NCBI GenBank assembly: GCA_009841045.1
Contig: VXMO01000010.1
Span: forward strand, 6,544 to 70,543
Origin: Dehalococcoidia bacterium
Lineage (GTDB): Bacteria > Chloroflexota > Dehalococcoidia > UBA6926
Direction: 5' to 3'
DNA length: 64,000 nucleotides
In this document: piece after piece, positions 2,068-63,829 of the stretch
Layout: each line of letters begins with the position of its first letter
Numbering within the stretch: the first letter of the stretch is position 1
The notes under the pieces: generated by a model
Databases searched by the model: none
Seen by the model: only the letters and a program-made list of their open reading frames with translations
Told to the model about the DNA's origin: nothing
Program-made: the position numbers and the translations under genes

Positions 2068-2155
2068 TCTCCCCAAAGCCTCGTGGCTGAGACTAGGCCG
2101 TTCGGCCCGGCGGAGTTGGGTATTAGTTGCGTCCGGTTGAGGGATTGTCGATAAT

Positions 2156-2188: not shown

Positions 2189-2213
2189 ATCCGAAGTTTC
2201 CACGGGATAGGAG

Positions 2214-2468: not shown

Positions 2469-2478
2469 GCGGATCCCG

Positions 2479-2904: not shown

Positions 2905-2918
2905 TTGGCGGCGGTCAC

Positions 2919-3950: not shown

Positions 3951-4018
3951 TCAATCGCCTGCTTTACGGGCGGGGAGGCGTCCGCCTACGATTTGCCTAT
4001 ACCGTTCGAGTCGGCGCT

Positions 4019-4813: not shown

Positions 4814-4837
4814 CAACAGCGGGGAAGCGGGGGACTT

Positions 4838-5614: not shown

Positions 5615-5657
5615 GAGCGGCAGTCGGCAAGCGTCTGCGGTAACAAGACCTGATCTG

Positions 5658-7160
5658 CTAGCCGCCAGTTATCGCAAGCCTCGTTTGCGTATCCCCAACA
5701 AAGTAGCGCGGGTCTACCGGCGGCAGCTTTGGGCGGACTGACTTCGACAACATCTCCTGGACGCTCAGGACTTGCAGGCGCGGGTACTCCTCTCCACGCA
5801 ATCGCACCTTGCCCTGTTCTGCGGCAAAGACACGCAGTCGTTCGCGGGGGGGATAGAGTGTCACCATCACGGACATCGGGGAGTTGATGTTTTGGTTGTT
5901 CCAACTCGCTTGCACGCCAAGCAACTTGTCTAGTTCGGGACGGCCCACTTGTCCCTTGTACATCTTCACCTGAATCGGTATGACCTCATCATCCGCAGTG
6001 TAGTAACGCGCATCGACACCACCATCGCCGATCTTTCTGTCGTTGGGTACTGCGTTGAGTAGTCCCGCTACCTTGTCCTCAGCCCAAGCCCAGCCGGGTT
6101 GTCCATCTTCGGAGTCCGACTCATGCAACTGCGCCCGGCGCTCGAAAGCCTCCCACTCATAATCTTCCCATCCCATGCGATACACGGACGGGAACGCATC
6201 GCCGCCGCGACTCTCTAGCCGCTGTTGCATCACCCGTACTGCGATAGCGCTCACGTCGATTCCCAAGTATTTGCGACCCAACATCGCCGCCGCGTCTGCT
6301 GCTGTACCGCATCCACAGAATGGGTCTAGTACGAGGTCGCCCTCGTTGCTACTCGCTGTGATAATGCGCTCCAGCAGAGCAAGCGGTTTCTGCGTGGGGT
6401 AGCCGACAATCTCTTCTCCATAAGGGCGTGGAATGCCACGCCACCAGTCCTCAACAACCTTGCCTTTTTTGTTCGGCCCGTATGTCTTGCCTGGCGCTCG
6501 CGAGTCTTCTCGCGTGAATACCGTGGCTTGGTAGTCTGAATCATAGGGAACTCTCACGTCATCCCTATTGAACAAGTACTTCCCAGTTTTGCTATACCTA
6601 AAGATGATGTCGTGCTTGCGGGGAAAGTCGTTCTTGGGTTGCCCGCCCCCCGAATAACACCACACAATCTCATTCCGCAGGTTCTTCTCCCCGAAGATCT
6701 TGTCGAGGAGGATTCGGAGTAACCAATCAGCGCGATAATCACAATGCAGATAGATGCTGCCTGTTGCCTTGAGAACGCGGTGCATCTCGACTAACCGCAG
6801 TCCCATGAACAGGGCATAGGCAGACATGGGGGAGTTCTTGCCGCTCACAAGACGGACTGCCTCTACCGCATCGCGCAGTTTGCCGACTGGTAATCGCTGA
6901 AACCGTGCCTCGGTTTCCGTCGTCCAGCGCCAGATATCGCGGAGTTGTCTATCAACTTTACCCTTGTCGCCAAATGCGGCGACATAATCGTGATTGGAAT
7001 TGAACGGTGGGTCGAGGTAGATGAGGTCTACCGACTCGTCGGGCAGTTCCCTGAGAATGTCGAGGTTGTCCCCGCAGACAAGAGCGTTGCCCGACAGGTA
7101 GGGCGAACCCGGTGGAGTTGTAGAGATCGGCGTCCGATCGTGGACGTTGGGATTGTCCAT
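5658..7160 (-). CDS. Beta-class N6-adenine or N4-cytosine DNA methyltransferase fused to a C-terminal Mrr-like PD-(D/E)xK nuclease domain.
   Basis: Motif IV LIYLDPPFNSN precedes motif I VLDPFCGCGTAADAAAMLG, the beta-class order. C-terminal ~170 aa carry GDGGVDARYY...IPIQVKMYKG, matching the Mrr catalytic signature (D...QxK). ATG at 7158-7160 has a GAGGAGG Shine-Dalgarno 6 nt upstream. GC is somewhat lower than flanking core genes. Confidence 0.75.
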   Translation of the reverse strand: MDNPNVHDRTPISTTPPGSPYLSGNALVCGDNLDILRELPDESVDLIYLDPPFNSNHDYVAAFGDKGKVDRQLRDIWRWTTETEARFQRLPVGKLRDAVEAVRLVSGKNSPMSAYALFMGLRLVEMHRVLKATGSIYLHCDYRADWLLRILLDKIFGEKNLRNEIVWCYSGGGQPKNDFPRKHDIIFRYSKTGKYLFNRDDVRVPYDSDYQATVFTREDSRAPGKTYGPNKKGKVVEDWWRGIPRPYGEEIVGYPTQKPLALLERIITASSNEGDLVLDPFCGCGTAADAAAMLGRKYLGIDVSAIAVRVMQQRLESRGGDAFPSVYRMGWEDYEWEAFERRAQLHESDSEDGQPGWAWAEDKVAGLLNAVPNDRKIGDGGVDARYYTADDEVIPIQVKMYKGQVGRPELDKLLGVQASWNNQNINSPMSVMVTLYPPRERLRVFAAEQGKVRLRGEEYPRLQVLSVQEMLSKSVRPKLPPVDPRYFVGDTQTRLAITGG

Positions 7161-7230
7161 CCGGTGCCTCCTCGCGGCGTGCAGACATGGTTTCCCGCCA
7201 CAGGAGCACCGGCTGCGCGAGTCCGCGAGG

Positions 7231-7252
7231 AGACATGAGAGAACTCATGTCT
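7231..7252. promoter_or_regulatory. Perfect 9-bp palindrome AGACATGAG-AGAA-CTCATGTCT in the methyltransferase upstream region (candidate operator).
   Basis: Lies 71 nt upstream of the MTase start codon, in the divergent intergenic region. Confidence 0.25.
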
Positions 7253-7426
7253 TTACGCGGATTTCACGCAAAAACGACTCGCGCAAACGGTTTTGTGAAC
7301 CGGTTGCTCCTGTGGCACGGATATTCTGCTAGAGGCGCGGGTCGTGTGTCAATGACGGTGCTTGTCGCACACGGCCCTCCCACTTGTGGGTGAGGGGGGA
7401 GTTGTGGCCCTTGCGGGCCACGGGAT

Positions 7427-7451
7427 GGATTCCGGCCTACGCCGGAATGAC
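7427..7451 (+). repeat. Hairpin repeat, variant copy: GGATTCCGGCCTACGCCGGAATGAC.
   Basis: Same element as at 13317, 15541 and 15591. Stem substitutions are compensatory, so the hairpin is preserved. Confidence 0.6.
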
Positions 7452-7572
7452 GGTGGGGGGGCGGCTCGTGTCTTTTGCCAGGTTCACCCTTCGACAAGCT
7501 CAGGGTGAACGGGCGTGTTGGAGTGATGGGGTGGGGTATACTTACGTCAAGACAGTTTTTGAAACGGTTCAA

Positions 7573-8301
7573 ATGATTAGGAGGTGCCCTACGGCCCCCG
7601 ATACACAAAGCTCGGCCTCGACTGATGAGCTCCGCCCGTGGCGCGAGGGCAGCGAGCGCATCGCCATCTTCATCGACGGTAGCAATCTCTATCACGCCCT
7701 TGAGGAATCCTGCGGACGGACTGATCTCGATTTCGCGGCATTCATCCAGTGGATCGCGGGCGAGCGTCCGCTCTTCCGCACGTATTACTACAACATCATC
7801 CAAGATGAGAAACGCCGCCCTGCCGAGTTCCAGCAGCAGCAACGCTTCTTGCAGGCTCTGAACCTGATTCCCTATTTGGAGACCCGCTTTGGCACGACGC
7901 GCATCCGCGACGGCCAGGTGGTTGAAAAGGGCGTGGATATCATGCTCGCCACGGACCTGCTGTACTACGCGTGGCAGGACTATTACGACATGGCGGTGCT
8001 GGTGTCCGGCGACGGCGATTTCGCCTATGCCATCCAGACGCTTAAGAACCTCGGCAAGTACGTGCAGGTCGTGACGTTCGAATCGAATCAGTCGCCTGAT
8101 CTCTGGGACAAGGCTGATCTGCGCACGCTGCTCACGCCGGACCTGGTTGCGCAGGAGAACCTGTGGGTGAACAAGGAGCCGGCGCGGAAGAGGCGGCGTC
8201 GAACGACGACCGGAACGACGCGCCGGACTACTCGGAAGTCTACAGCTTCGACATCCTCAACATCATCAAACGGCCGGGCGGAGGCTGTGGCGGCGCAGTA
8301 G
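7573..8301 (+). CDS. NYN domain (LabA/PIN-like) protein with an Arg/Thr/Ser-rich C-terminal tail.
   Basis: RIAIFIDGSNLYHA...VLVSGDGDFAYAIQ is typical of NYN domains. Start set at ATG 7573. The longer track ORF from 7384 reads through the hairpin repeat (IPAYAGMT), which is probably non-coding. Confidence 0.65.
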   Translation: MIRRCPTAPDTQSSASTDELRPWREGSERIAIFIDGSNLYHALEESCGRTDLDFAAFIQWIAGERPLFRTYYYNIIQDEKRRPAEFQQQQRFLQALNLIPYLETRFGTTRIRDGQVVEKGVDIMLATDLLYYAWQDYYDMAVLVSGDGDFAYAIQTLKNLGKYVQVVTFESNQSPDLWDKADLRTLLTPDLVAQENLWVNKEPARKRRRRTTTGTTRRTTRKSTASTSSTSSNGRAEAVAAQ

Positions 8302-8312
8302 CCGTTCCTCAG

Positions 8313-10343
8313 CTAACCCAGGTCGCCTTGATCACGGCCTGTGGCGTCCCTGAACGGGGAATCGCTCCACGGGAAGATGTTGGCGGCGGTTTCCAGCAAG
8401 GGGAAGTCATCTCCGGGATGGAAGACGGCGACGCCATTCGCCGTGCCAACCCACAGGTTGCCGTCTCGATCAAGCAAGAGTTCATTGACGCGATTGCTCG
8501 GCAACGGTGTTGACTCCGCCGTATAGACCATCCAGAGCTCGTCGTTCACAAGCCCAACGAGGCCGCCGTCCGTGCCGACCCAATAGCGGCCCGTTTCCGT
8601 ATCTTCGGCGAATGAGCGGACGTTGTCGTTGGGGAGGCGTCCATTGGCCCGATTCAACTTGATCCACTGCTGGCCGTCATAGATAGCGACTCCATCACCG
8701 ATGGTTCCGAACCACATGCGGCCCTGGCTGTCTTCACGGGAGGCAAGGACGAGGTCGGTGCGGATATCGGCGTTCTCCGTTTTCAGGCTGTTCCAGATGC
8801 CGTTGTCGAAGATGTTGATGCCCTGCCAGTGCGTGAGCCAGACGCGACCCGCGGAATCTTCCGTGACAACACTGATGATGTTGGTGTTCAGGCCGTCGCC
8901 GCGGTTGTAGAGCGTCCATTCGCCGTCTTCAAGCACGGCCGCGCCGAGGCCGGTGGCAAACCACACCCGGTCCTGGCTGTCGTAGTAGACGTTGAAGAGG
9001 GAGTTGCTGGGAAGTTGCTGCTCCCCTTCGACATCACCGAACCTGTCGTATTCGGTCCATTCACCATTGTCATAGACAGAGCCGCCGCTGAGTGTGGACA
9101 TCCAGACGCGTCCGTGTTTGTCCTCCGCGAGGCCGGTCACGTATCGATAGGCGAGGCCGCTGTTGAACTGGGTAAAGGTCTCCCAAACACGGCCATCAAA
9201 CTTGGCGACGCCCTGGGACGTGGCCACCCAGATGTTGCCTTGGCTGTCTTCAAGGAGCCCGTAAACATCGTTGGCGGGGAGGCCGGTTTCCGCCGGAAAG
9301 AGCCATTCATACGTCTCTTCCTCGGGGTCATATATGGTGACGCCACCGCCGTAGGTCACGATCCAGAGAGTGCCGTCCTCGTCCCAATGCAAGTCCTCAA
9401 CGAAATGGTGGGAGAGTTCGCGCTGCCTGACCCTGAGCGGTTCAGTGAACAAAGTCCCATCAAAGGTTGCAATGCCGGCTTCCGTGCCTACCCAGAGGAT
9501 TTCTTCATCGTTGACGGCGTCTTCATCCGGCGTCTGGAAAACGAGGGCCGTTACGAAGTTGGACGGCATGCCCTCCAGGACTGTGTACGGGTCTTCTCTC
9601 CATTCACCATCGGCATGCAGAACGTTCAGGCCACCGCCGTACGCGCCGATGTACAGATCGCCATCGGAGTTTTCAAGGAAAACGCGGATCTCGTTTGCGG
9701 CCAGGGGGCTGTTTTCTGCTGTGTAGACGGTGCGCTGTCCGTCTGCATCGAACACCACTGCACCGCCCTTTGATCCAACCCAGATGCGGCCCTCAGAGTC
9801 CTCGTAGAAGGTCCAGATACGATCGTCAGGAAGGCCGTTATCCAAGTTGAATGACGTCCATTCACCATCTTCAAGGATGCGGATGCCCTCGCCCCACGTG
9901 CCGACCCATGTCCGGTCCTGACTGTCGAGCAGGAGCGCGGAGACAAACACGTCATCCAGCCCAAGTTCCCCGTCTTGATCAAGGCGCGACCATTGGCCCT
10001 CTTCAAGAACGACGATGCCCTTCTCGGTTCCGACCCAGACGACGCCATGCGGATGGTAGATGAACGACGTGGTGCGCGCGGTGATGCCGCTGTTGGTGGC
10101 GTTGTAGGTGATGAGCGCCCCGTCGTCGTACAGGGACGCGCCGTTTTCGAAGCTCGCGAACCACTTGCGCCCATGGACGTCTTCATAGACTTCCGTGAGG
10201 AACCAGCTGGCGATGCTGGTGTTTTCGACGTTGTAGACGGTCCAAAGGCCGCGGCTTGAATTGGTCTGCTCACCGCCGCCGGCGGCGCCAACGAGGACAA
10301 GCAACGTCAACGACGCCAACGAGATGCCGCGGAATACGTTCAC
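8313..10343 (-). CDS. Secreted protein composed of two-component-regulator beta-propeller (Reg_prop-like) repeats.
   Basis: N-terminal signal peptide. About 14 repeats of the D..G.(I/L)W(V/F)GT..G(L/V) blade motif. No kinase or other output domain. Confidence 0.65.
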   Translation of the reverse strand: MNVFRGISLASLTLLVLVGAAGGGEQTNSSRGLWTVYNVENTSIASWFLTEVYEDVHGRKWFASFENGASLYDDGALITYNATNSGITARTTSFIYHPHGVVWVGTEKGIVVLEEGQWSRLDQDGELGLDDVFVSALLLDSQDRTWVGTWGEGIRILEDGEWTSFNLDNGLPDDRIWTFYEDSEGRIWVGSKGGAVVFDADGQRTVYTAENSPLAANEIRVFLENSDGDLYIGAYGGGLNVLHADGEWREDPYTVLEGMPSNFVTALVFQTPDEDAVNDEEILWVGTEAGIATFDGTLFTEPLRVRQRELSHHFVEDLHWDEDGTLWIVTYGGGVTIYDPEEETYEWLFPAETGLPANDVYGLLEDSQGNIWVATSQGVAKFDGRVWETFTQFNSGLAYRYVTGLAEDKHGRVWMSTLSGGSVYDNGEWTEYDRFGDVEGEQQLPSNSLFNVYYDSQDRVWFATGLGAAVLEDGEWTLYNRGDGLNTNIISVVTEDSAGRVWLTHWQGINIFDNGIWNSLKTENADIRTDLVLASREDSQGRMWFGTIGDGVAIYDGQQWIKLNRANGRLPNDNVRSFAEDTETGRYWVGTDGGLVGLVNDELWMVYTAESTPLPSNRVNELLLDRDGNLWVGTANGVAVFHPGDDFPLLETAANIFPWSDSPFRDATGRDQGDLG

Positions 10344-10582
10344 AGCCTATTTCCTCTATGGTCGATGCGGGCGTGTTGTTCCATGCGATTCATTCTGTAG
10401 ACGTGTGTGGTCAACCACTCTGACCACACAGTTTAGCGCGGAATTCGGCGAGTGGCGCAGACTCACGGAAAAATGACGGCTATAGGAGTCGCATGGTACG
10501 ATACGGCGTGTCTGTTACTGCCAAGAGCGGCGTCATTCAGTGGTGGGACTAACTGAGCCGCCTTGCGCAAAGGGGGTACCAA

Positions 10583-11011
10583 TTGGCGGATGAGGTTCTT
10601 GGCGTGTCCGTTGGAACCGTCGTGTCATTCACGAAAGAGATTTCAGCGCATGACGTGGAGCAGTTCGCGGAGGCGTCCGGTGACGTTCAGCCCATCCACC
10701 TGGATGACAATTACGCCAAGCGGACGCGCTTTGGTAATCGAATAGCGCACGGCATGCTCACGGCGGGCGTTATCTCCGCCGCAATCGGCACTCAGTTGGT
10801 GCCGAACGCAATCGCCATCTATATGGGACAGACATTGCAGTTCCGGGCTCCTGTGTGGCTTGGGGACTCGATCACTGCAACCCTTGAGGTCACCGAGCTT
10901 GACGTTGAGCGCCGCCGCGCCACCATTTCGACCACGTGCACGAATCAGAAAGATGAAGTGGTCCTCACCGGTGAGGCGCTTGTGATGCTGGACACCGTGC
11001 GTGACGAGTAG
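10583..11011 (+). CDS. MaoC-like (R)-specific enoyl-CoA hydratase (single hotdog).
   Basis: 142 aa. RIAHGMLT...G hotdog dehydratase motif. Confidence 0.75.
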   Translation: MADEVLGVSVGTVVSFTKEISAHDVEQFAEASGDVQPIHLDDNYAKRTRFGNRIAHGMLTAGVISAAIGTQLVPNAIAIYMGQTLQFRAPVWLGDSITATLEVTELDVERRRATISTTCTNQKDEVVLTGEALVMLDTVRDE

Positions 11012-11081
11012 CGTGGCGCGTAATTGGCAGCATCGGCGCGACCGGGTCGTTTTCCAGTATCCGTACAGGAGGCCAATTTAG

Positions 11082-12113
11082 ATGTTCGTTCTTGACCAGG
11101 GCAGCCGAATCGTCGTTCCGCGGACGGAGATGACGTATCCCGGCCACAACATGCGGATGCATGAGAATGCGGCCTCCGCGCCAGTCGACCATGTGATGGC
11201 AGATCTTGAGGACGCGTGCCCCTATGAGTTCAAGGGCGAGCCATCCCGCAACACGATCATGGAGGCGTTCAACACGCTGAATTACGGCGAGAAGGTGGTC
11301 ACGTTCCGCCCGAACAACATCCATTCCCGCTTCTTCCTCGGCGACGTGGAAACGATCATGCGGGGGGCGGTCGACAAGTTCCACGGAATCATCCTGCCGA
11401 AGGTGACGGGGCCTGAGGACGTCATCTACGTGTCACGCCTGCTTGATGCCCTTGAGCTTGAGGCGGGCTGGACGACAAAGGTTGCCATTGAGACGTTGAT
11501 CGAGACGCCGGAGGCGATGGTCAACGTCAGCAAGATCGCGACGGCCTCGCCCCGGATGGCGGGGTTGATCTTCGGCATCGCGGACTTTGCGGCGGTGATG
11601 GGCGTCGTGGACGTCGTCGAAGACCAGAACAAGAACTTCCACTACGCCAAGCAGCACATGGCGGTGGCGGCAAAGGCGGCTGAGCTGCACGCCATCGACA
11701 ACGTGTTCTTCACCCTCGTCCGGCGCGACACGTCGGAGGAGGACGCGGCGAAGATCAATGAGGACCTGCTGCAGAAGAACGTCGAGGCGGCGAACCTGGG
11801 TATGGACGGCACATGGATCATCCACCCGCAACAGGCGCCGATGGCCAACATGGCGTACACGCCGAGTGATTCCCTGACCGAATACGCTTCGCGGTTGATT
11901 GACAATTACCATGAGCGCGGCGGCGGAGCGTTCGTCTTTGAGGAGACGGGCGAGTTCGTCGATGAGGCGACGGCCAAGGGGTATCTTGTGCTGCTGGCGA
12001 AGGCCGCGCAGGCCGGCAAAGTTGAATCGGATTGGTTGTCCGAGCACGCCGCGCGACACGCGGAAATCACCGGCTACGACGTACTGCGGCAGGCGGGCCG
12101 ACACGTCGCCTAG
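11082..12113 (+). CDS. HpcH/CitE-like acyl-CoA lyase (malyl-CoA/beta-methylmalyl-CoA/citramalyl-CoA lyase family).
   Basis: DLEDAxP motif and ETPEAMVNV...ASPRMAGLIFGIADFAA, as in CitE and Mcl lyases. 343 aa. Confidence 0.7.
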   Translation: MFVLDQGSRIVVPRTEMTYPGHNMRMHENAASAPVDHVMADLEDACPYEFKGEPSRNTIMEAFNTLNYGEKVVTFRPNNIHSRFFLGDVETIMRGAVDKFHGIILPKVTGPEDVIYVSRLLDALELEAGWTTKVAIETLIETPEAMVNVSKIATASPRMAGLIFGIADFAAVMGVVDVVEDQNKNFHYAKQHMAVAAKAAELHAIDNVFFTLVRRDTSEEDAAKINEDLLQKNVEAANLGMDGTWIIHPQQAPMANMAYTPSDSLTEYASRLIDNYHERGGGAFVFEETGEFVDEATAKGYLVLLAKAAQAGKVESDWLSEHAARHAEITGYDVLRQAGRHVA

Positions 12114-12136
12114 AGAAACCGCCGTCCGAGAGCGTC

Positions 12137-13297
12137 ATGCCTGATCCCATCATCGAACCTCAGGACGCCATTGCGGCTGAGGTGCGCAGGTGGGTCGACC
12201 GGGAGGTTGTGCCGGTCGTTGACGAGCTTGAGCACAACAACACCTTCCCGGACCAGCTCGTGCAGGGGATGCGGGAGCTTGGCCTTTTCGAGTTGATGAT
12301 TCCGCAGGAGTACGGCGGCATCGGCGCGACGTATGTGAGCTATTCCGGCGTGGTGGAGGAACTGGCGCGGGGGTGGATGAGCCTCGGCGGGATTCTGAAC
12401 ACCCACGTCATCATCACGCACCTTGTCGCCTCGTACGGCACGGATGACCAGAAGCAGCGGTATCTGCCGCAGCTGGCGACGGCTGAGCGGCGGGGCGCAT
12501 TGACCATTACGGAGCCGAACGCGGGCTCCGACGTGCAGGCAATCCAGACCGTTGCGGTGAAGGATGGCGACGACTACGTGGTGAACGGCTCCAAGCTGTT
12601 CGTGAGCAACGGGCGGCGCGGCGGCCTATTCGCGATGGCCGTCAAGACGGATCCCCACGTGGACCCGCGTTATCGCGGCATCTCCTGCCTGCTTGTTCAG
12701 CCCGAATACCCGGGCTTCAATGTGACACGCGACATTGAGAAGCTGGGCTACAAGGGCATCGAGGCGTCCGAGCTATCGATGGACGACCTCCGTGTGCCTG
12801 CGAGTAACCTGCTCGGCGGCGAGGAGGGACAGGGATTCTTCCAGATACTGAGCGGGGTCGAGGTGGGGCGCGTGAACACGGCTGCGCGGGCCGTCGGCGT
12901 GGCGCGGGCGGCGTTCGAGGCTGCCGCGACGTATGCGCAGCAGCGGCAGGCGTTCGGCAAGCCCATCGGAGAGCACCAGGCCATTCAGCTCAAACTCGCT
13001 GATATGTACACAAACATCACCGCGGCACGGCTGTTGGCGCGGTGGGCGGCGGGCGTTAAAGACCAGGGCGGGCGCGCCGACACCGAAGTTGGCATGGCCA
13101 AGCTGTTCGCGACGGAGGTGGCGACGCAGGCGACGCTGGAGTCCATGCGGATTCACGGCGGGATAGGCTATACGAAGGAGATGCCGGTGGAGCGGTTCTT
13201 CCGCGACGCGCCCGGCATGATGATCTATGAGGGCACCAACGAGATTCAGCGGACGATCATCGCTCGCAGTGTGCTGCAGCGGTACGCGGTGAGCTAG
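12137..13297 (+). CDS. Acyl-CoA dehydrogenase.
   Basis: ACAD motifs: LTITEPNAGSD, C-terminal catalytic Glu region YEGTNEIQR. Start at ATG 12137, after the lyase stop. Confidence 0.85.
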   Translation: MPDPIIEPQDAIAAEVRRWVDREVVPVVDELEHNNTFPDQLVQGMRELGLFELMIPQEYGGIGATYVSYSGVVEELARGWMSLGGILNTHVIITHLVASYGTDDQKQRYLPQLATAERRGALTITEPNAGSDVQAIQTVAVKDGDDYVVNGSKLFVSNGRRGGLFAMAVKTDPHVDPRYRGISCLLVQPEYPGFNVTRDIEKLGYKGIEASELSMDDLRVPASNLLGGEEGQGFFQILSGVEVGRVNTAARAVGVARAAFEAAATYAQQRQAFGKPIGEHQAIQLKLADMYTNITAARLLARWAAGVKDQGGRADTEVGMAKLFATEVATQATLESMRIHGGIGYTKEMPVERFFRDAPGMMIYEGTNEIQRTIIARSVLQRYAVS

Positions 13298-23759: not shown

Positions 23760-24830
23760 TTGGAAGACATCAAACTATGGGAATTGGATGGAACGCAGGC
23801 TAAACCCTTGGAACCGAAAAAACAGTTGGAATTAGAGAGTCTGCTGGAGGATATCCTCGTCAAGAATCCGGATCTGCTTATCAAAGACTTGAAACTCGTG
23901 GGGCGGCAGACCTCCACCGAGGGTGGACCGCTTGATCTGCTCGGCATCGACCCGGAGGACGGCAATCTGGTGGTGTTTGAGTTGAAGCGCGGGAGGCTGT
24001 CGCGTGACGCTGTCGCGCAGATTATCGATTACGCATCCGCCCTCAACCTCATGGGACTTGATGATCTCGCTGAGCACATAGCAGAAAGATCAGGCGAACG
24101 CGACATTGAGAAAATCGAGAACTTTCAGGAGAGGTACGGCGATGAGTTGGAGTCGCTGAAACAGCTGCGTTTGGTTCTTGTCGGCTTGGGAGCGGATCCT
24201 ACAACGGAACGCATGGTGCGGTTCCTCGCGCAGAATAGTGGCTTGGACATCTCGCTGTTGACTTTTCACGCGTTCGACCACAACGGCAAGACCATCCTTG
24301 CCAAGCAAGTGGCGGTAGATGCAGCGGGCGAACCAGACCGCGGCTCAACAAATCGACGCCGCACACGAGTGGAACTGGAGCGGGACTTCGAAGAGAAAAT
24401 AGAAAGGTTTGGGACACGTGACCTAGTTGATGATGCTCGCCACATGTTCAGTGAGAATTGGCCTGAATCTACCGTTAGAATAGAAGCCCGCGGACGCAGT
24501 ATACACCTAGGGCGAGGCAGGGATTCTAGGCGAGCCACACGTATTGATACCTTCAGAGAGCATACAATCAGCATCGCGTTTTTCAGCGAGACCAAGGCAT
24601 TGTGTCTGGACGAGTTTAGGGAGCTTGTAAGGGATATTGAGTACCGAATAGAACCGAGAAGCTACCGGGGCCCTGCGGACGCTTGGAAAAATCCCGAGAC
24701 AGATATTCATTTTCATCTGAACCGGCAGGAATGGGAACTGCACAGGGAGAGGTTGACCACTCTTGTGCAAGCCGTATACGCGGCGTGGCAGAACCAGGAT
24801 GAGGACACTGAGGCGGAATTGTTGTCGTGA
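23760..24830 (+). CDS. Hypothetical protein with an N-terminal NucS-like PD-(D/E)xK nuclease motif set. Lower GC than surroundings.
   Basis: LESLLEDIL...LVGRQ...GGPLDLLGIDPEDGNLVVFELKRG...AQIIDYA matches the E..L/GxQ/IDLL/ELK(R) pattern of NucS-family nucleases. C-terminal ~200 aa of unknown function. Its TGA stop overlaps the GTG start of the next gene (GTGA). Confidence 0.55.
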   Translation: MEDIKLWELDGTQAKPLEPKKQLELESLLEDILVKNPDLLIKDLKLVGRQTSTEGGPLDLLGIDPEDGNLVVFELKRGRLSRDAVAQIIDYASALNLMGLDDLAEHIAERSGERDIEKIENFQERYGDELESLKQLRLVLVGLGADPTTERMVRFLAQNSGLDISLLTFHAFDHNGKTILAKQVAVDAAGEPDRGSTNRRRTRVELERDFEEKIERFGTRDLVDDARHMFSENWPESTVRIEARGRSIHLGRGRDSRRATRIDTFREHTISIAFFSETKALCLDEFRELVRDIEYRIEPRSYRGPADAWKNPETDIHFHLNRQEWELHRERLTTLVQAVYAAWQNQDEDTEAELLS

Positions 24831-27726: not shown

Positions 27727-28578
27727 ATGACCCAACATCCCAGTTTCGGCGGCCCATGGACACAGGAAAAGCTGGACATCCTCAGGAGTTATTTGAACTC
27801 CTATACCACTGCGCTCAAGAACCAGCCCTTTAGTCTCATTTATATCGACGCTTTTGCCGGTTCAGGATGGTACCAAGCTAAGCAGCCTGAAGATCCAGGC
27901 AATTACGGCGAATTTGACGAGCTCCGAGCAGGATCGGCAACGATAGCTTTGGAGATTGACGACAGACCGTTTGACCACCTCATCTTCGTGGAAAAGGATG
28001 TGGAATTCATCGAGTCACTAAGTGGCCTGCAAGCCGAACATCCTAGTAGAAACATAGAGGTTATTAGGGGAGATGCGAATGAGGAGTTGCCCCTAATCTG
28101 CCAAGACATGCGGTCAAGTGAGCGAGCTGTAGTATTCCTAGACCCTTACGCGACAGAAGTTGACTGGGCAACAGTGGAGTCTGTTGCCAACACGAAGAAG
28201 ATTGATTGCTGGATTTTGTTTCCTCTCAGTGCCCTCACTCGGATGATGGACAACGATAGAAGACCGAATGAAGAACTTGCGGGCCATCTGGATCGAGTAT
28301 TCGGTGGGCGGCAATATTGGCAAGAACAACTCTATCGACCATCAATCCAGCAGTCCCTTTTCGCCGATGAAGAGATCGTAGCCAGGGAACCGCAGAATCG
28401 CATCGCTGCGCTTTACAAAGAACGGCTTGCCACTATCTTTCACGCAGTCGCACCTACTAGCCGACAACTGAGGAATTCTCAGAACTCACCAATGTTCGAG
28501 CTTATGTTTGCCGCATCGAACCCTGCAGGGTCACGGATCGCTATCGAAATAGCCAACCATATTCTAGAGCGCTGGTAG
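27727..28578 (+). CDS. TcmP-like (three-Cys-motif partner) protein with methyltransferase-like motifs. Markedly low GC.
   Basis: Starts 4 nt after the Gp37/Gp68 stop. IDAFAGSG resembles MTase motif I and VVFLDPYATE resembles the DPPY-like motif IV. GC about 50% against about 65% background. Confidence 0.55.
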   Translation: MTQHPSFGGPWTQEKLDILRSYLNSYTTALKNQPFSLIYIDAFAGSGWYQAKQPEDPGNYGEFDELRAGSATIALEIDDRPFDHLIFVEKDVEFIESLSGLQAEHPSRNIEVIRGDANEELPLICQDMRSSERAVVFLDPYATEVDWATVESVANTKKIDCWILFPLSALTRMMDNDRRPNEELAGHLDRVFGGRQYWQEQLYRPSIQQSLFADEEIVAREPQNRIAALYKERLATIFHAVAPTSRQLRNSQNSPMFELMFAASNPAGSRIAIEIANHILERW

Positions 28579-57505: not shown

Positions 57506-57528
57506 GTGGCACAGTGAGCGCCATGACT
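57506..57528 (+). repeat. R1 direct repeat, copy 1: GTGGCACAGTGAGCGCCATGACT.
   Basis: Identical 23-mer recurs at 58607-58629. Both copies cover the translation start of a + strand gene. Confidence 0.6.
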
Positions 57529-58035
57529 TTTCCGATTGAACCGGCAGGCCACGACGCCTGCCCGGACGTCATCGAACTGATCCACCGAGTCTACGACGAA
57601 TACGGCTTTATCTGGGACCCCGAGGATGAGCTCCGGGATCTGCTGACCCAGGAGCACGCCTTTCCTTACCGCGCGCCGATCGGCGCGATGTGGATCATGC
57701 GCGACGAGTCCGGTACGGTCGTCGGTTCGATCGCGGCCAATCGGATTGACGGACCGACCGTCGAGCTGCACCGCCTCTATCTCGACGCTCACCTGCGCGG
57801 ACAGGGCTTGGGCCGCCGGCTCGTCGAGACGGCTGTCGAGTGGGCTCGGGATCACGGAGCCTGGCGGATCGAGCTCTGGTCCGACACGCGTTTCGCAGAC
57901 GCCCATCGGCTCTATGAGCGCCTCGGTTACGTCAAGTCGGCCAGGCGCACGCTAGATGACGTCAACGACACGGTGGAGTTCAAGTACGAGCGGAAACTTA
58001 CGGACTCTGACGGTCAAGACTCCCCGGAACATTGA
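57514..58035 (+). CDS. GNAT family N-acetyltransferase.
   Basis: RGQGLGRRLVE acetyl-CoA binding motif. Start is GTG 57514 or ATG 57523, both inside the R1 repeat. Confidence 0.8.
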   Translation: MSAMTFPIEPAGHDACPDVIELIHRVYDEYGFIWDPEDELRDLLTQEHAFPYRAPIGAMWIMRDESGTVVGSIAANRIDGPTVELHRLYLDAHLRGQGLGRRLVETAVEWARDHGAWRIELWSDTRFADAHRLYERLGYVKSARRTLDDVNDTVEFKYERKLTDSDGQDSPEH

Positions 58036-58065: not shown

Positions 58066-58266
58066 TCAGGCGGTCTGGAATTGGACTTGAGAGAGGTCAA
58101 TAGTTGATGACCGCTTTGACAGATGCAGCAACTCGATTCCAACAACGTCATGGGCCTGATTGTAGTCCAGGATGATGCCCGGCGCGACTTGCTCCGTCAT
58201 GACAATCTCCGAATCGTCAAGGTAGAGGTAGAGGGCGTCGGCGTCTTTATCAACTTCGAGCTTCAT
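58066..58266 (-). CDS. DUF2283 family protein (antitoxin-like partner).
   Basis: MKLEVDKDADALYLYL is typical of DUF2283; 66 aa. Confidence 0.65.
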   Translation of the reverse strand: MKLEVDKDADALYLYLDDSEIVMTEQVAPGIILDYNQAHDVVGIELLHLSKRSSTIDLSQVQFQTA

Positions 58267-58590: not shown

Positions 58591-61032
58591 GTGAATCGAG
58601 GGAATGGTGGCACAGTGAGCGCCATGACTACGACAAATAGCGAGAACACGGCGCTTGGGCACCTGAAGGTCGTTGAGCTTGGAGGCGGGACGGGCGCGGC
58701 GGCGATGGCGGGGCGGCTGCTTGCAGACATGGGCGCGGACGCTGTGCTCGTTGAGCCGCCCGGCGGGGTCGGGGCGCGAGGTATCGGCCCGTTTGCCAAC
58801 GATGTTGACGATCCTGACCGCAGCCTGACGTTTCTCGACCACAACATCAGCAAGCGCTCCGTGGTTCTTGATCTCGATACGCCAGATGGGCAGGAGTCCG
58901 TTCGCCGCCTTGCCTCATGGGCTGACGTGCTAATCGAGTCGCATGAACCCGGGTATCTTCCAGAGCGCGGCTTGGGCTACGAGAACCTTGCAGATATCAA
59001 CCCCGAACTCGTCTACGGTTCGCTGACGCCGTTCGGCCAGACGGGGCCGTTTGCGAATTACGCATCGACGGAATTGATCATCCAGTCACTGGCGGGGGAT
59101 CCATGGGTCTACGGCGACGATGAGCGCGCGCCGGCGATGGTGCCCGGAGAGGCCACCGCCCGCATCGGCTCCATGCACCTTGTGTACGGCATCCTGCTGG
59201 CGCTGCGGGAGCGACGTTGGTCGACGCGCGGGCAGCACGTGGACGTTTCACAGCAAGACATCGGTGTCTGGCAGCTGGTGAGCGGCAGCATCTCCCGCGT
59301 CGGGCTGCGGAATGAGGTGTTTCGCCGCCCCGGCAAGGCATCTACCGGCATCGGCAGTATCTATCACTGCGCGGACGGCGTCATTCAGTTTTTCCCGTCC
59401 ACGAACGCGCAGTTCCGCGGCCTGGTCACGGGCTGGATGCAGGACTCCACGTTCGACGACGAGGCCTGGGACGACACGAATTTCCGCCGCGACAACTACG
59501 ACATCATCGACGTCCGCATGAGAGAGTTCATGGGCAAGTTGACGGCTGCGGAGATCGAGGAAAGCGCCGCCATCCATGACGTGCCGATGGCGCGCCTGTC
59601 CACCATGGCGGAGTTCGTTGAGCACCCGCATACCGTAACCCGCCAGTTCATTGTCGATGCGAGCCACCCTGTTGTCGGCGACTACCGCGCGCCCGGCCCG
59701 CCGTACCGGTTCAAGGGGACGCCGTGGGCGATTCATCGCCCTGCTCCACGCATCGATGAGCATGGCGATGAACTGCGCAAGATGATCGAGGGGCTATCGT
59801 CAACGCCGCCCGATCCGACCAAATACGTTGCGCGGCGGCACGACCGGCGCAAGCAGCCGCTTGAAGGCATTCGCATTGCCGACCTGAGCCGTGTGTTTGC
59901 CGGGCCCTTTGGCACGATGCTGCTGGGATTCCATGGCGCGGAGGTCATTCGGATAGAGTCGGAGGACCTGCCGGCTTTCAGGATGCCGATGCAGCCGAAC
60001 TACCCGGAACTGAACCGCAACAAGCAGTGCGTGACCATCGACATGCGCTCAAAGAAGGGGCAGGAACTCATCAAGGGCATCGTCGCACAGTCGGATGTCG
60101 TTGTTGAGAACTTCCGCCCCACCGTCATGGAGCGCATGGGGCTTTCCTACGAGGAGCTGCGCAAGGTTCGCCCGAATGTGATTATGGCATCTATGTCCGG
60201 GTACGGTATGGATGGTCCGATGCGAGACCGACCTGCTTTCGGGCAACTGCTGATGGCCTTCGGCGGGCTGTCATACATGTGGGGGCATCCTGAGAGCGAT
60301 ATCGATACGCGCCCCAAGAATGCGTATTCCGACTTCACGCTCGGCGCGCAGGCGGCGATGGCCGTGATGATGGCGCTGGAGCACCGCGACCGGACCGGCG
60401 AGGGGCAGCACATCGAGAGTTCCCACGTTGAGGGGCTGGCGGCACTGCTGGGGCCGGAGATGCTGCGCTACCTGATCAACGGTGAAAGCCCGCAGCCGCG
60501 CGGCAACGCGAGTGACATCTACGCTCCGCACGGCGTGTATCCCTGTTTGGGTCACGACGCGTGGGTTTCTATCGCGGTCGAGAACGATGAGCAGTGGGGC
60601 AAGCTGGTTGCGGTGATGGACGAGCCGACGTGGGCGAATGACGGCAAGTTCGCGACGCAGGAGAATCGGCTCGCCAACCGCGCCGAACTGGATGAGCGCC
60701 TGAGCGGGTGGACCTCGGAACGGTGGGCGGGACAGGTGCAGGTTGCGCTGCAGGCCGTCGGCGTGCCGTGCGGCGCGGTGCAGAACCCGCTGGGCCTGCT
60801 TGCCGATCCGCAGCTGCAGCATCGCGGGACCATCGTGACAGCGCACCACGACCCGGACTGGTGGGGCACGATGCAGCACCCCGGCGTTTCACTGCACCTG
60901 AGCGCGACGCCCGGCTGGGCGACGGACTCCACGCCCGGCCTCGGCCAGGACAATGATCGCGTCTTCAAGCAGCTTCTCGGGCTGACCTCCGCAGAGATAG
61001 AGGCGCTAACGGCGGAGGGGGTTTTGAGATAG
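58591..61032 (+). CDS. Tandem-fused family III (CaiB/BaiF) CoA-transferase with two complete domains.
   Basis: Two successive CoA_transf_3-like halves: LKVVELGGGTGAAAMAGRLLADMGADAV...HEPG... and IRIADLSRVFAGPFGTMLLGFHGAEVIRIE...NFRP.... 813 aa. Confidence 0.8.
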   Translation: MNRGNGGTVSAMTTTNSENTALGHLKVVELGGGTGAAAMAGRLLADMGADAVLVEPPGGVGARGIGPFANDVDDPDRSLTFLDHNISKRSVVLDLDTPDGQESVRRLASWADVLIESHEPGYLPERGLGYENLADINPELVYGSLTPFGQTGPFANYASTELIIQSLAGDPWVYGDDERAPAMVPGEATARIGSMHLVYGILLALRERRWSTRGQHVDVSQQDIGVWQLVSGSISRVGLRNEVFRRPGKASTGIGSIYHCADGVIQFFPSTNAQFRGLVTGWMQDSTFDDEAWDDTNFRRDNYDIIDVRMREFMGKLTAAEIEESAAIHDVPMARLSTMAEFVEHPHTVTRQFIVDASHPVVGDYRAPGPPYRFKGTPWAIHRPAPRIDEHGDELRKMIEGLSSTPPDPTKYVARRHDRRKQPLEGIRIADLSRVFAGPFGTMLLGFHGAEVIRIESEDLPAFRMPMQPNYPELNRNKQCVTIDMRSKKGQELIKGIVAQSDVVVENFRPTVMERMGLSYEELRKVRPNVIMASMSGYGMDGPMRDRPAFGQLLMAFGGLSYMWGHPESDIDTRPKNAYSDFTLGAQAAMAVMMALEHRDRTGEGQHIESSHVEGLAALLGPEMLRYLINGESPQPRGNASDIYAPHGVYPCLGHDAWVSIAVENDEQWGKLVAVMDEPTWANDGKFATQENRLANRAELDERLSGWTSERWAGQVQVALQAVGVPCGAVQNPLGLLADPQLQHRGTIVTAHHDPDWWGTMQHPGVSLHLSATPGWATDSTPGLGQDNDRVFKQLLGLTSAEIEALTAEGVLR
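58607..58629 (+). repeat. R1 direct repeat, copy 2 (identical 23-mer), at the start of the CoA-transferase gene.
   Basis: See copy 1 at 57506-57528. Confidence 0.6.
60976..61021 (+). repeat. R2 direct repeat, copy 1 (3' end of the CoA-transferase CDS).
   Basis: 46 nt, 42/46 identical to 61690-61735. Confidence 0.55.
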
Positions 61033-61073
61033 AGGTGAACTGTGGGCTTAGCCGAGTGCCCTATACTCTTGTT

Positions 61074-61325
61074 ATGAATACCAGTGACGAGTTGCTCAAA
61101 CGGATTACAGCGCGTCCCGATGTCTTTGGCGGCAAGCCAATCATTCGCGACATGCGTATCTCCGTAGAGTTGATTTTGAGCCTGCTAAGTCAAGGGGAGT
61201 CCGTGGAGAGCATCCTGGATGATTATCCGGGACTTGAGCCTGACGACATCCGGGCTTGCACAGCCTACGCCCACGCGGTGATAGCAGGTGACAGCCTCTC
61301 AGCGGTTTCTGTTGCAGGGTCGTGA
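61074..61325 (+). CDS. DUF433 domain protein (antitoxin-like).
   Basis: PDVFGGKPIIRDMRISVELIL is the DUF433 signature. Start set at ATG 61074. Confidence 0.65.
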   Translation: MNTSDELLKRITARPDVFGGKPIIRDMRISVELILSLLSQGESVESILDDYPGLEPDDIRACTAYAHAVIAGDSLSAVSVAGS

Positions 61326-61678
61326 GGTTTCTCGTTGATCGGTGTGCCGGTCGGCGATTAGCTGAGTGGTTACGCTCCGAAGGGCACGATGTCTTTGAAG
61401 CGATTCAAGTCAATCCAGACCCGGGAGACCAGGCACTCCTGGAACTTGCGGCAACTCAAAATCGAGTCTTCATCACTATTGACACTGATTTTGGTGAACT
61501 GATTTTCCTCCACGGAGTGGCTCATGCGGGACTGGTCCGCCTGCCTGATGTCCCATCAGAGCGGCGAATCGAGTTGATGACAGAAATCATTACACGCTAC
61601 AGCACTCAGTTAGAGGAGCGCGCCATCATCACAGTAACTGGCAATCGTATAAGGATTACGCCCAGTACAGTTAACTGA
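61322..61678 (+). CDS. DUF5615 / PIN-like (Mut7-C-like) protein (toxin-like).
   Basis: MRFLVDRCAG...FITIDTDFG acidic-residue pattern of PIN-like DUF5615. Overlaps the DUF433 gene (GTGA). Confidence 0.65.
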   Translation: MRFLVDRCAGRRLAEWLRSEGHDVFEAIQVNPDPGDQALLELAATQNRVFITIDTDFGELIFLHGVAHAGLVRLPDVPSERRIELMTEIITRYSTQLEERAIITVTGNRIRITPSTVN

Positions 61679-61689
61679 AGTGAGAGGCG

Positions 61690-61735
61690 CTCGGCCTCAC
61701 CTCCGCAGAAATAGAGGCGCTAGCGGCGGAGGGGG
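61690..61735 (+). repeat. R2 direct repeat, copy 2 (non-coding remnant of the CoA-transferase 3' end).
   Basis: See copy 1 at 60976-61021. Confidence 0.55.
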
Positions 61736-61796
61736 TATTGCCGTAAGAGGAGAGCTAGTAAAATGGCTTGAGCAATAGTTATATCGGGGGAATATT

Positions 61797-62939
61797 GTGC
61801 GAATTTCGCGTCCAGCCGTCGAGATCATTCAAGGGAATCTCAAACTCTATCTCACTTACCTGACCCCACGGGACTTGGATGAGGAAGGTTTCTACGAAGT
61901 AGACAAGCTGGATGCCACGCCCGGCGCAAGCAAAGGCTACCAGAGGATCTTGAACGAACGCCGTGTCGGTGCACTCGACCGCTACTTGAGGGAGGCGCAC
62001 GAGCACGGCTATGCGAATCTTCCAACCACAGTCTTCTTGGCTACCGAAGGTAAGGTAAGGTATAACGAAGATAAGGGAGTGATTTCCTTTGATACAAAGA
62101 ATGTTTGCCCATTTAATGTTGTCGATGGCCAGCATCGAATTGAGGGGCTTCGCCGAGCGAGCAGGACGGACAATGACCTTCGATCATTTCGGCTCCCTGT
62201 AACTATTGCCACTGGCCTCGATGAGGCCCACCAGATGTACCATTTCTTTGTAGTGAATACAACACAGGTTCCTGTTGATCAGTCGCTACAGCAACAAATA
62301 GCCGCTAGATTCGAAGACATGAATCGGGTGGAGAAACTCCCATACATTCCACATTGGCTTCAGCATCGAGTGCACACAGGACGGGATCAACGGGCTCTGC
62401 AAATTGTCACAAAGCTCAATACTCATCGAAAATCCCCTATGAAGGGCCGTATACAGATGGCCAACGATCCAGAAGGTGGCCGCAATAAGATCAAGCAATC
62501 CTCAATTGTGAAGATCATACAAGATCAGGTGTTGACCTCAGGCAATCCACTTGAAGGCAACGAAACCTCCGCGGACGTCCAAGGGAACATTCTATTGAAC
62601 TTGTGGATTGCCATCGACAAACTCTTCGTCGATGGTCGAAATAGAGATGACACTGTAATCTACAAGAGCAACGGCCTATTTTGGGGCTTTGGCATTTCGA
62701 GATGGGTTTTCAACGTGCTCTACTCAAGCACAGATAACTTTACTGTCGATTCCATAACAAAGACGATTCAACAAGGGCTCGACGAGTTACCTGATGAGGC
62801 GGCGGCTATAGCAAGCCCTGATTGGTGGCTGTCCGGTGGAGGAAGGGCCAGTGCTCTGAACAGAGCTAATGCGCGGGTTTACATTGAAGCCTTCAGACAA
62901 GGTCTCGCGAAGGCTCGAAACCGCGAGATTCGGGTATGA
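61797..62939 (+). CDS. DGQHR domain protein (DndB family). Low GC.
   Basis: NVVDGQHRIEGL contains the eponymous DGQHR motif. GTG start with a GGGGGA Shine-Dalgarno; 380 aa; GC about 50%. Confidence 0.75.
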   Translation: MRISRPAVEIIQGNLKLYLTYLTPRDLDEEGFYEVDKLDATPGASKGYQRILNERRVGALDRYLREAHEHGYANLPTTVFLATEGKVRYNEDKGVISFDTKNVCPFNVVDGQHRIEGLRRASRTDNDLRSFRLPVTIATGLDEAHQMYHFFVVNTTQVPVDQSLQQQIAARFEDMNRVEKLPYIPHWLQHRVHTGRDQRALQIVTKLNTHRKSPMKGRIQMANDPEGGRNKIKQSSIVKIIQDQVLTSGNPLEGNETSADVQGNILLNLWIAIDKLFVDGRNRDDTVIYKSNGLFWGFGISRWVFNVLYSSTDNFTVDSITKTIQQGLDELPDEAAAIASPDWWLSGGGRASALNRANARVYIEAFRQGLAKARNREIRV

Positions 62940-63268
62940 TTCTTAGAGCACTGACCTCAGAAATGACTGATCGGGTGGCATTCCGCCTGAATCATTTGCG
63001 CTTTGTACCCGAGGAGTCGGGCTGCTATGCACTGGCAAGCATTGACGAAATCGTTCTCTATGTGGGAAAGACCACGAACTTACATCGCAGGCTAGAAGAT
63101 CACTTGTCCGATCCCGAAAAAACTGGCATCACACCCAGCGGTAGAGCGGTTTGGTTTTACTACGGATTCTGGCCAGAAGAACGCATCGAACATGTCGAGA
63201 TGCAACTCTTGCGCGATCACAAGATGGTTGAGGGCGTCTGGCCAATATTGAACAAGACTGGCCCTTGA
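62936..63268 (+). CDS. Small GIY-YIG nuclease domain protein.
   Basis: GCYALASIDEIVLYVGKTTNLHRRLEDHL matches GIY...YIG plus the conserved Arg/Glu region. ATG overlaps the DGQHR stop (ATGA). 110 aa. Confidence 0.75.
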   Translation: MILRALTSEMTDRVAFRLNHLRFVPEESGCYALASIDEIVLYVGKTTNLHRRLEDHLSDPEKTGITPSGRAVWFYYGFWPEERIEHVEMQLLRDHKMVEGVWPILNKTGP

Positions 63269-63283
63269 CTTGGATGCGACAGG

Positions 63284-63829
63284 ATGTCCAAGTTGCGCAA
63301 GCTCATACTCTATTCGGCGATGAGCCTGGACGGATATATCGCGGGGCCGAACGGTGAGATTGATTGGCTGGATGCGGCAGGCGTTGACAGCGATTACGGT
63401 TACGGGGATTTCTACGGCTCCATCGATACCACGCTGATGGGGCGCGCCACCTACGAGATCTCGCAGACCGTGGATGAGTTCCCCTACCCGGATAAGACCA
63501 ACTATGTCTTCACCCGGAACTCCGCCCTGGCTGACACGGCGCGTGTCCGCTTCATCACCAGCGACGTGGTCGACTTTACTCGACGCCTCAAGGAAGAGGC
63601 CGGCGGAGACATTTGGCTGGTTGGCGGAGGCCAGATCAACGCAATCTTGCTGAACGCGGAACTAATCGATGAGGTGATTCTAACGGTCTTTCCACTGCTC
63701 CTTGGCGACGGCATTCCGCTGTTTGCTCCGGGCGCCCGTCGCACAGCTTTCACAACTATTGGGTGCCACACATATGAGAGCGGCATCATCCAATGGCATT
63801 TGACACCCGCATACGAGCCAGCATCATAG
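63284..63829 (+). CDS. Dihydrofolate reductase family protein (RibD C-terminal domain-like).
   Basis: LILYSAMSLDGYIAGPNGEIDWL...WLVGGGQ. Confidence 0.8.
   Translation: MSKLRKLILYSAMSLDGYIAGPNGEIDWLDAAGVDSDYGYGDFYGSIDTTLMGRATYEISQTVDEFPYPDKTNYVFTRNSALADTARVRFITSDVVDFTRRLKEEAGGDIWLVGGGQINAILLNAELIDEVILTVFPLLLGDGIPLFAPGARRTAFTTIGCHTYESGIIQWHLTPAYEPAS

Follow-up and report, generated by a model that had tools for sequence, protein, structure and literature searches.

Do a DGQHR-domain protein and a small GIY-YIG nuclease, encoded by two overlapping genes, make up a functional unit, and what might such a unit do? This question is raised by a GC-poor gene pair in a 64-kb stretch of the Dehalococcoidia bacterium contig VXMO01000010.1 (hereafter the window), the remainder of which is ordinary chromosome that includes gyrA, groEL, carAB and tsaD. 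We found that the two genes form a conserved cassette that moves horizontally and is present across many bacterial phyla. On balance, we lean toward reading it as a laterally mobile nuclease of two components, complete in itself, in which a DGQHR NTPase licenses a bare GIY-YIG enzyme and whose role would most likely be defense.

The initial annotation of the window had described a 380-aa DGQHR protein and a 110-aa GIY-YIG nuclease with an overlapping stop and start. Both genes were confirmed, with an ATGA shared between them (Table 1), and hidden Markov model searches assigned both products to their families above the respective cut-offs (TIGR03187, 99.3 bits vs 58.85, over aa 7-293 of the DGQHR protein; PF01541, 30.6 bits vs 22.6). 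The peptide FNVVDGQHRIEGL was found in the 380-aa protein. The GC content of the pair is 50.1%, in agreement with the early estimate of about 50%; that of the window is 61.6%, and the value of roughly 65% given for the genome was therefore slightly high. Exact copies of both window proteins are present in metagenome contigs.

Conservation and mobility of the gene pair

Homologous loci were collected with a profile built from alignment A1, which holds 35 DGQHR-family sequences and was also used to assess motif conservation. The search of a one-genome-per-species collection (185,579 species) resulted in 179 confirmed loci, 80 of which were fetched. A GIY-YIG homologue was located immediately 3' of the DGQHR gene, on the same strand, in all 79 testable loci; the 80th was left out of this count, as its contig ends 65 nt past the DGQHR gene. 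The 4-nt overlap of the two genes recurred in 58 of the 79 loci. Paired loci were detected in more than 12 phyla, among them Chloroflexota, Acidobacteriota, Pseudomonadota (Alpha-, Beta-, Gamma- and Deltaproteobacteria), Bacteroidota, Verrucomicrobiota and Planctomycetota, and further in Nitrospirota, Gemmatimonadota, Bdellovibrionota, Myxococcota, Armatimonadota and Bacillota.

The pairing was also examined from the nuclease side. A protein search with the nuclease profile returned 53 clusters, each of 110-119 aa and scoring >104 bits. Six clusters were looked up, and a DndB-family gene of 377-388 aa was found directly upstream in 8 of 8 places, a Parcubacteria genome among them. The same arrangement was observed in the four complete loci on viral contigs (4/4). 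The initial annotation had staked its proposal on the two homologues co-occurring across genomes, and they do. The distance matrices of the two proteins are correlated (Mantel r = 0.81, 76 loci), with none of 2000 permutations reaching as high a value, which shows that the two genes are co-inherited.

No third conserved gene was detected when all open reading frames (ORFs) within 5 kb of the 80 loci were clustered; the most frequent neighbor cluster occurred in 7 of the 80, all from closely related Chloroflexota. Bulk scans of the 135 immediate neighbors revealed no Pfam or PADLOC family in more than four of them. One copy of the pair may be disrupted: in Acidobacterium sp. S8 (L030, 8001-9469) the DGQHR ORF ends early, at 8894, and the GIY-YIG ORF starts 234 nt further on.

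The suggestion that the pair is horizontally acquired accessory DNA was borne out by its composition, its variable slot and its presence on plasmids and in prophage or gene transfer agent (GTA) clusters. In 74 of 76 loci, the pair was poorer in GC than its flanks (median difference, -10.6 points; Wilcoxon p = 4e-14). The window and a relative with 90% identity (L086) carry the pair in the same slot, between a CoA-transferase gene and FAS1_DH genes, and the other accessory genes of that slot differ between the two. Between these genomes (window vs L086, 10001-11472), the synonymous divergence (dS) of the two genes of the pair was 1.15 and 1.56, 2-3 times that of the adjacent CoA-transferase gene (0.57), suggesting either faster evolution of the pair or allele replacement at the slot.

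Five full-length copies were found on megaplasmids (rhizobial and Cupriavidus; conjugative), where the neighbors were WYL, PD-(D/E)XK and UvrD genes on one plasmid and a DEAD helicase and an exonuclease on another. Cultured carriers of the pair include Sinorhizobium terangae CB3126 (pCB3126_2; WP_283067814/WP_283067815), S. mexicanum ITTG R7, Aequorivita aquimaris D-24 (L051), Sphingomonas sp. BK345 (L061) and Blastochloris sulfoviridis DSM 729 (L078). In IMG/VR, the pair was detected on 5 of 2.9 million contigs. On two alphaproteobacterial proviral/GTA contigs (L098 and L099, about 1900-12900) it resides, moron-like, inside a tail-gene cluster encoding a GTA_TIM/Phage-tail_3 protein, a baseplate hub and a tape-measure protein; an AbiEii toxin gene lies close by in L098. 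No family member was found among 50,697 phage genomes, and a phage origin of the pair was rejected on this ground.

Toxin-antitoxin (TA) modules adjoin the pair in the window and in three other loci (L090, L091 and L093). Neighbors elsewhere included a type III methylase, PDC-S06, an OLD/GajA-like ATPase, a PLD-helicase-DUF3427 protein, HipBA, DUF2283, a resolvase and a transposase. The initial annotation had noted that no dnd, ssp or dpd genes accompany the pair. Indeed, the 64-kb window gave no strong match to any of them and none was linked to the pair in the 80 loci (0/80), the sole match to a DpdF model (L033) being a lone RecQ-type helicase.

Features of the two proteins

We compared the DGQHR protein with curated family models. 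It matched PF14072 (DndB) above the cut-off (50.1 bits vs 29.1), with the match confined to aa 6-166, and it has the DGQHR motif in common with DndB, a regulator of DNA phosphorothioation. It failed both equivalog models, scoring 18.2 bits vs 328 for DndB (TIGR03233) and 58.7 bits vs 300 for DpdB (NF041060; alignment over aa 4-283). DpdB is the DGQHR/ParB-like ATPase of the Dpd 7-deazaguanine DNA-modification system; its partner is a transglycosylase, whereas that of the window protein is a nuclease, and neither dpdA (TGT-like) nor dpdC is linked to the pair in any locus. Unlike DndB, the window protein has no linked dndACDE genes. Membership in a canonical Dnd or Dpd system was thus ruled out by the curated scores and the lack of linked genes, leaving the DGQHR gene outside such operons as the initial annotation had supposed. 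A word-indexed protein collection contained 256 full-length homologues of about 378-385 aa. An exhaustive search of 1.84 billion representatives with a profile yielded 1772 matches, of which about 50 full-length members scored >230 bits; a drop in score followed, and below it were more distant DGQHR proteins. The 380-aa protein represents a distinct subfamily within the DndB/DpdB branch of the ParB/Srx superfamily.

Across the 35 sequences of A1, Q49, R50, D110, G111, Q112, H113, F150 and N154 are invariant and R114 is conserved in at least 90%. These residues cover the QR pair, the DGQHR pentapeptide and FxxxN, the three motifs that define DGQHR/DUF262 ParB-like domains (PMC4619093). DGQQR, the equivalent motif of SspE, was reported to be necessary for NTPase activity (PMC10164549). 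The AlphaFold2 model of the window protein (predicted local distance difference test [pLDDT] score, 84.7) consists of a mixed alpha/beta N-terminal domain with the ParB/sulfiredoxin fold, followed by an all-helical C-terminal domain; DpdB likewise combines a ParB fold with a helical C-terminal domain (PMC10164549). Motif conservation and the biochemistry of DpdB and SspE suggest that the protein binds and hydrolyzes nucleoside triphosphates (NTPs). Beyond H149, no histidine is among the invariant residues of the 35 sequences, and the C-terminal domain is therefore not a nuclease of the HNH/DUF1524 type, unlike the C-terminal domains of GmrSD and SspE. The DGQHR profile had zero matches among Protein Data Bank sequences, and the C-terminal half of the protein matched no solved structure.

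The nuclease matched PF01541, as given above, and its profile matched the N-terminal domain of UvrC (1yd6; E = 1.9e-7). Its AlphaFold2 model (pLDDT, 89.4) has the GIY-YIG alpha/beta fold and nothing beyond the catalytic core. Foldseek comparison of this model retrieved GRXS16-N, UvrC-N and R.Eco29kI, with 2lwf, 1yd6, 1ycz and 3mx4 among the matches, and, weakly, PD-T4-3 (9u75). As judged from the model, the 110-aa protein is a minimal stand-alone UvrC-like GIY-YIG nuclease without a DNA-binding domain of its own. The nearest solved or curated relative, the N-terminal GIY-YIG domain of UvrC/Cho, shares its catalytic residues and fold; the window nuclease, in contrast, has no UvrB-interacting region, second endonuclease domain or HhH domain, and comprises the GIY-YIG core, a conserved N-terminal strand (F16) and an LPxLN tail. 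It is only 110 aa long and failed the equivalog models of UvrC (25 bits vs 285) and Cho (17.8 bits vs 367); the homing-endonuclease model TIGR01453 was also failed (19 bits vs 56), and no extra domain was present.

The active site of the nuclease is intact. Among 80 sequences, whose median identity to the window protein is 36%, each core GIY-YIG residue shows either full conservation or conservation of at least 94%. G29, Y31, G44, R52, H56, E88 and N106 are invariant in one set (A2, 37 sequences), in which C30 and Y42 reach at least 90%, and every listed core residue, C30 and Y42 included, is invariant in another (A5, 48 sequences). Y31, G44, R52, H56, E88 and N106 show no variation in any of the three sets. 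F16, G69 and the P103-x-L-N106 tail are conserved as well. In the comparison of the window with L086, the ratio of nonsynonymous to synonymous substitution rates (dN/dS) was 0.058 for the DGQHR gene and 0.113 for the nuclease gene, showing that both are under purifying selection. A decayed GIY-YIG fragment, a possibility allowed for at the outset, was ruled out by the invariant catalytic residues together with the low dN/dS.

Several members of the DGQHR family deviate from the two-gene layout or carry additional domains. In P0170 (L087, 6001-7575), a DndB domain and a GIY-YIG domain occur in a single chain of 524 aa, encoded between mdh and sucCD on a 782-kb contig. A distant DGQHR protein of 460 aa, P0198, ends in a C-terminal HNH domain. 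About one-fifth of the full-length representatives contain an N-terminal extension of 100-210 aa (P0129, P0133, P0134, P0141 and P0142; L081, 8578-9000), which is DUF7662 in P0133 (39 contigs) and DUF5655 in a Sinorhizobium plasmid copy and, weakly, in P0142; the rest were unmatched. The window protein has no such extension. These extensions may be additional sensor or DNA-binding modules. Conflict systems typically show variable add-on domains and interchangeable nucleases.

In two loci, a 774-aa protein with a central DndB domain (L096, 11397-13721, and L097, 8110-10434, both on the minus strand) is encoded beside a D12-class Dam methylase, only about 2 kb from the DGQHR/GIY-YIG pair. This architecture and that of P0198 may represent further uncharacterized DGQHR-based systems.

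Table 1. Coordinates of the gene pair, its translation signals, and the predicted domains and conserved residues of its products in the window
Feature	Position	Strand	Remarks
DGQHR-domain protein gene	61797-62939	+	ORF, 380 aa, GTG start
GIY-YIG nuclease gene	62936-63268	+	ORF, 110 aa, PF01541 match
Shine-Dalgarno-like GGGGGA	61786-61791	+	5 nt 5' of the GTG of the DGQHR gene; from sequence
ATGA stop/start overlap of the DGQHR and GIY-YIG genes	62936-62939	+	From sequence; predicted translational coupling
N-terminal ParB/Srx-fold domain, predicted NTP-binding	61797-62276	+	About aa 1-160; QR, DGQHR and FxxxN motifs
DGQHR pentapeptide codons, D110-R114	62124-62138	+	
All-alpha C-terminal domain, predicted DNA binding and/or partner docking	62277-62936	+	About aa 160-380
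Nuclease catalytic core	63020-63253	+	Conserved GIY-YIG residues
G29-C30-Y31	63020-63028	+	
Y42-V-G44	63059-63067	+	
R52	63089-63091	+	
H56	63101-63103	+	
E88	63197-63199	+	
N106	63251-63253	+	

Proposed function and alternative explanations

In the mechanism that we propose, the DGQHR protein would be a DpdB/DndB-like ParB-fold NTPase with a helical C-terminal domain, probably a dimer, which would bind or clamp DNA in an NTP-dependent manner. The nuclease, little more than an active site, would be coproduced with the DGQHR protein by translational coupling and would rely on it for access to DNA and for the licensing of cleavage; we infer that the two proteins form a physical complex. The most likely role would be defense against phages or other invading DNA, as suggested by the low GC content, the variable locations, the prophage/GTA insertions and some defense-type neighbors of the pair. 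Since no modification enzyme is linked to it, discrimination would depend either on a feature of the foreign DNA, as in type IV restriction, or on activation upon infection. More tentatively, and a little short of what we would call probable, the pair may be an unnamed, widespread two-gene antiphage or antiplasmid system in which a ParB-fold NTPase of the DndB/DpdB type, serving as DNA sensor or clamp, would activate a bare GIY-YIG nuclease; if so, it would be the first GIY-YIG effector under ParB-type nucleotide control. Its specificity could be type IV-like, directed at modified foreign DNA, and N-terminal add-ons such as DUF5655 and DUF7662 could tune recognition.

The proposed logic has precedents. 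ParB-like NTPases gate nucleases in the split GmrS/GmrD system, in BrxU and in SspE, and the licensing of DpdA by DpdB would be a parallel. GmrSD, BrxU and SspE combine a DUF262 ParB-like NTPase with a DUF1524 HNH nuclease and act in type IV or modification-sensing restriction; in E. coli CT596, the GmrS and GmrD parts are made as separate proteins. The pair would differ in drawing on the DndB/DpdB branch of ParB-like proteins and in using a GIY-YIG enzyme acting in trans instead of an HNH domain. The window DGQHR protein, in contrast to GmrSD, has no PF03235 (GmrSD_N) match at E <= 0.1, belongs to the DGQHR branch and contains no HNH/DUF1524 match, and its nuclease is a GIY-YIG enzyme that is usually a separate 110-aa protein. 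Weak, subthreshold matches to PF03235 were obtained solely in the relatives P0170 and P0198. By analogy, the best-supported reading is that the pair works like split GmrS/GmrD, SspE, or DpdB with DpdA, while being a member of none of these families.

GIY-YIG domains are known as restriction or defense effectors in CMoRE/PD-T4-3 and R.Eco29kI (PMC12923530). Those proteins carry their sensing or DNA-binding domains in the same chain, whereas the nuclease of the pair is bare and tied to a ParB-fold protein. The initial annotation had called the combination possibly undescribed, and this held: the pair was not described in the open-access literature searched or in curated families, and neither PADLOC-DB v2.0.0 nor NCBIfam contains a model specific to either protein. 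In PADLOC-DB, the DGQHR protein gave weak DpdB and DndB matches and the nuclease matched PDC-S14 at E >= 0.01. The megaplasmid copies have the generic PGAP names "DGQHR domain-containing protein" and "GIY-YIG nuclease family protein."

Several observations weigh against a licensed nuclease with a defense role. The DGQHR protein could regulate rather than target, because DndB has been described as a transcriptional regulator (PMC10853773). The nearest relatives of the nuclease are the repair enzymes UvrC, Cho and SLX1. The correlated protein distances follow from linkage alone and are no proof of contact between the proteins. The P0170 fusion is a singleton from a long-read assembly with about 10x coverage, in which an assembly error is possible, and as a singleton it counts as suggestive only. 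No mechanism for telling self from nonself is visible in the sequence. Finally, most immediate neighbors are housekeeping or metabolic genes, and many loci are flanked by housekeeping genes alone. We considered four alternatives, all of which are less well supported than a licensed nuclease.

The first, which we judge unlikely, is a TA or abortive-infection module, in which a GIY-YIG toxin would be restrained by the DGQHR protein and freed by stress or infection to damage the DNA of its own cell. Restraint could be exerted by direct binding or by ATP-modulated transcriptional repression, as proposed for DndB, which was reported to be an ATP-responsive repressor (PMC10853773). The compact layout of two overlapping genes with the small nuclease second would suit such a module, but a strongly conserved NTPase-type protein of 380 aa would be unusually large as an antitoxin, and the natural fusion P0170 is hard to square with an antitoxin that has to dissociate. 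TA modules often adjoin the pair and no modification gene is linked to it, both of which are in keeping with this idea; the absence of a DNA-binding domain from the nuclease, however, suggests that its partner is needed for activity and not for restraint.

Less likely still, the pair would serve a DNA-modification system (dnd, ssp, dpd or an unknown one) as its restriction or regulatory arm, with the other genes of that system elsewhere in the genome. All characterized DGQHR proteins, DndB and DpdB, act with modification machinery (PMC10853773, PMC10164549), and GIY-YIG/URI nucleases occur in some Dnd neighborhoods: a reappraisal of Dnd systems mentions them as part of the large variety of nucleases around DndD-DndE cores (PMC10853773). 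The second DndB-domain protein with a Dam-type methylase near the pair in L096 and L097 would also fit. Against this stands the absence of linked dnd, dpd and ssp genes from the fetched loci and from the window; moreover, the pair travels alone, which counts against dependence on unlinked host genes.

We also give little credence to a selfish homing cassette, in which a DGQHR-targeted GIY-YIG enzyme would cut empty sites and the cassette would spread by recombinational repair, without gain to the host. GIY-YIG is a classic homing-endonuclease fold, but free-standing GIY-YIG homing enzymes have DNA-binding domains of their own and are found mainly in phages or introns. The nuclease of the pair, compared with I-TevI-type enzymes, has no C-terminal DNA-binding domain, and members of its family are all but missing from phage genomes and seldom found in viral contigs. 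Movement without an integrase into varied intergenic positions (mdh/sucC in L087; L094), the consistently low GC content and, between two close genomes, a higher dS than in the flanking gene would all be expected of such a cassette; no target gene, however, is common to the insertion sites, and invariant NTPase-type motifs in a 380-aa partner are untypical of homing systems.

An accessory DNA-repair or genome-maintenance nuclease, that is, a UvrC/Cho-like incision enzyme brought to a lesion or structure by a ParB-like clamp, is similarly improbable: the closest solved or curated relatives of the nuclease are indeed the N-terminal domains of UvrC and Cho and SLX1, and many loci lie amid housekeeping genes, but confirmed loci are few for the number of species searched, their phyletic pattern is patchy, their GC content is low and their locations vary, prophage/GTA clusters and plasmids also carry the pair, and no repair genes are linked to it.

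If the licensed-nuclease reading were confirmed, the pair would be a compact (1.5 kb) and phylogenetically broad addition to the defense repertoire, and the principle that a ParB-fold NTPase gates a nuclease would extend from DUF262/HNH proteins to the DndB/DpdB branch and the GIY-YIG superfamily. The pair would also offer a simple two-protein model for how the NTPase function of ParB-like DpdB, DndB and SspE operates on DNA, with the output of the partner, a nick or a cut, as an easy readout. A partner-licensed minimal GIY-YIG nuclease could serve as a tool, especially if it proved to be modification dependent. Existing defense catalogues give poor coverage of uncultured Chloroflexota and other environmental lineages, in which the family is common.

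Surroundings of the pair in the window

The repeat-flanked TA insertion that had been noted upstream of the pair is real. It consists of a DUF433 gene (61035-61325) and a DUF5615/PIN-like gene (61322-61678) and is flanked by a 51-nt direct repeat (60976-61026 and 61690-61740; 90% identical), whose first copy forms the 3' end of the CoA-transferase gene. Another direct repeat, GTGGCACAGTGAGCGCCATGACT, is 23 nt long and perfect; it is present at 57506-57528 and 58607-58629 and contains a start codon. It flanks a 1.1-kb segment that encodes a GNAT acetyltransferase (57514-58035) and a DUF2283/DUF4258 TA pair (58066-58266 and upstream, minus strand). This segment looks like a cassette insertion because it is absent from L086, and the insertion looks to have duplicated the 5' end of the CoA-transferase gene. 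The 51-nt and 23-nt repeats suggest that the slot acquires cassettes through a mechanism that duplicates gene ends.

The gene downstream of the pair (63284-63829) had been described as dfrA-like. It instead encodes a RibD_C-family reductase (66.9 bits), its DHFR_1 score of 21.5 falling below the threshold of 25. It begins 15 nt past the stop codon of the GIY-YIG gene and is of intermediate GC content, on account of which it may be cotranscribed with the pair. It is missing at the corresponding position in L086 and is not conserved beside the pair elsewhere; L089 has another RibD_C gene, 5 kb downstream. A sequence scan revealed no sigma-70-like promoter between the upstream TA pair and the DGQHR gene, and the promoter and terminator scan around the pair yielded nothing exceeding chance. 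A 17-nt repeat (61872-61888 and 63267-63283; 82% identical) was read as a chance match because one of its copies lies inside the DGQHR gene.

Farther away, 55 kb from the pair, a defense-like islet comprises a 500-aa N6/N4 DNA methylase with a C-terminal Mrr_cat-like restriction-endonuclease domain (5658-7160, minus strand; GC, 0.56) and, beside it, an NYN-domain protein (7384-8301, plus strand). Two further low-GC ORFs were observed, one with a NucS_C-like endonuclease domain (23760-24830; GC, 0.53) and one with a weak methyltransferase-like match (27727-28578; GC, 0.50). A bulk PADLOC scan of the ORFs of the window detected single strong matches to the candidate-system models PDC-M41A, PDC-M41B, PDC-M30B and PDC-S11.

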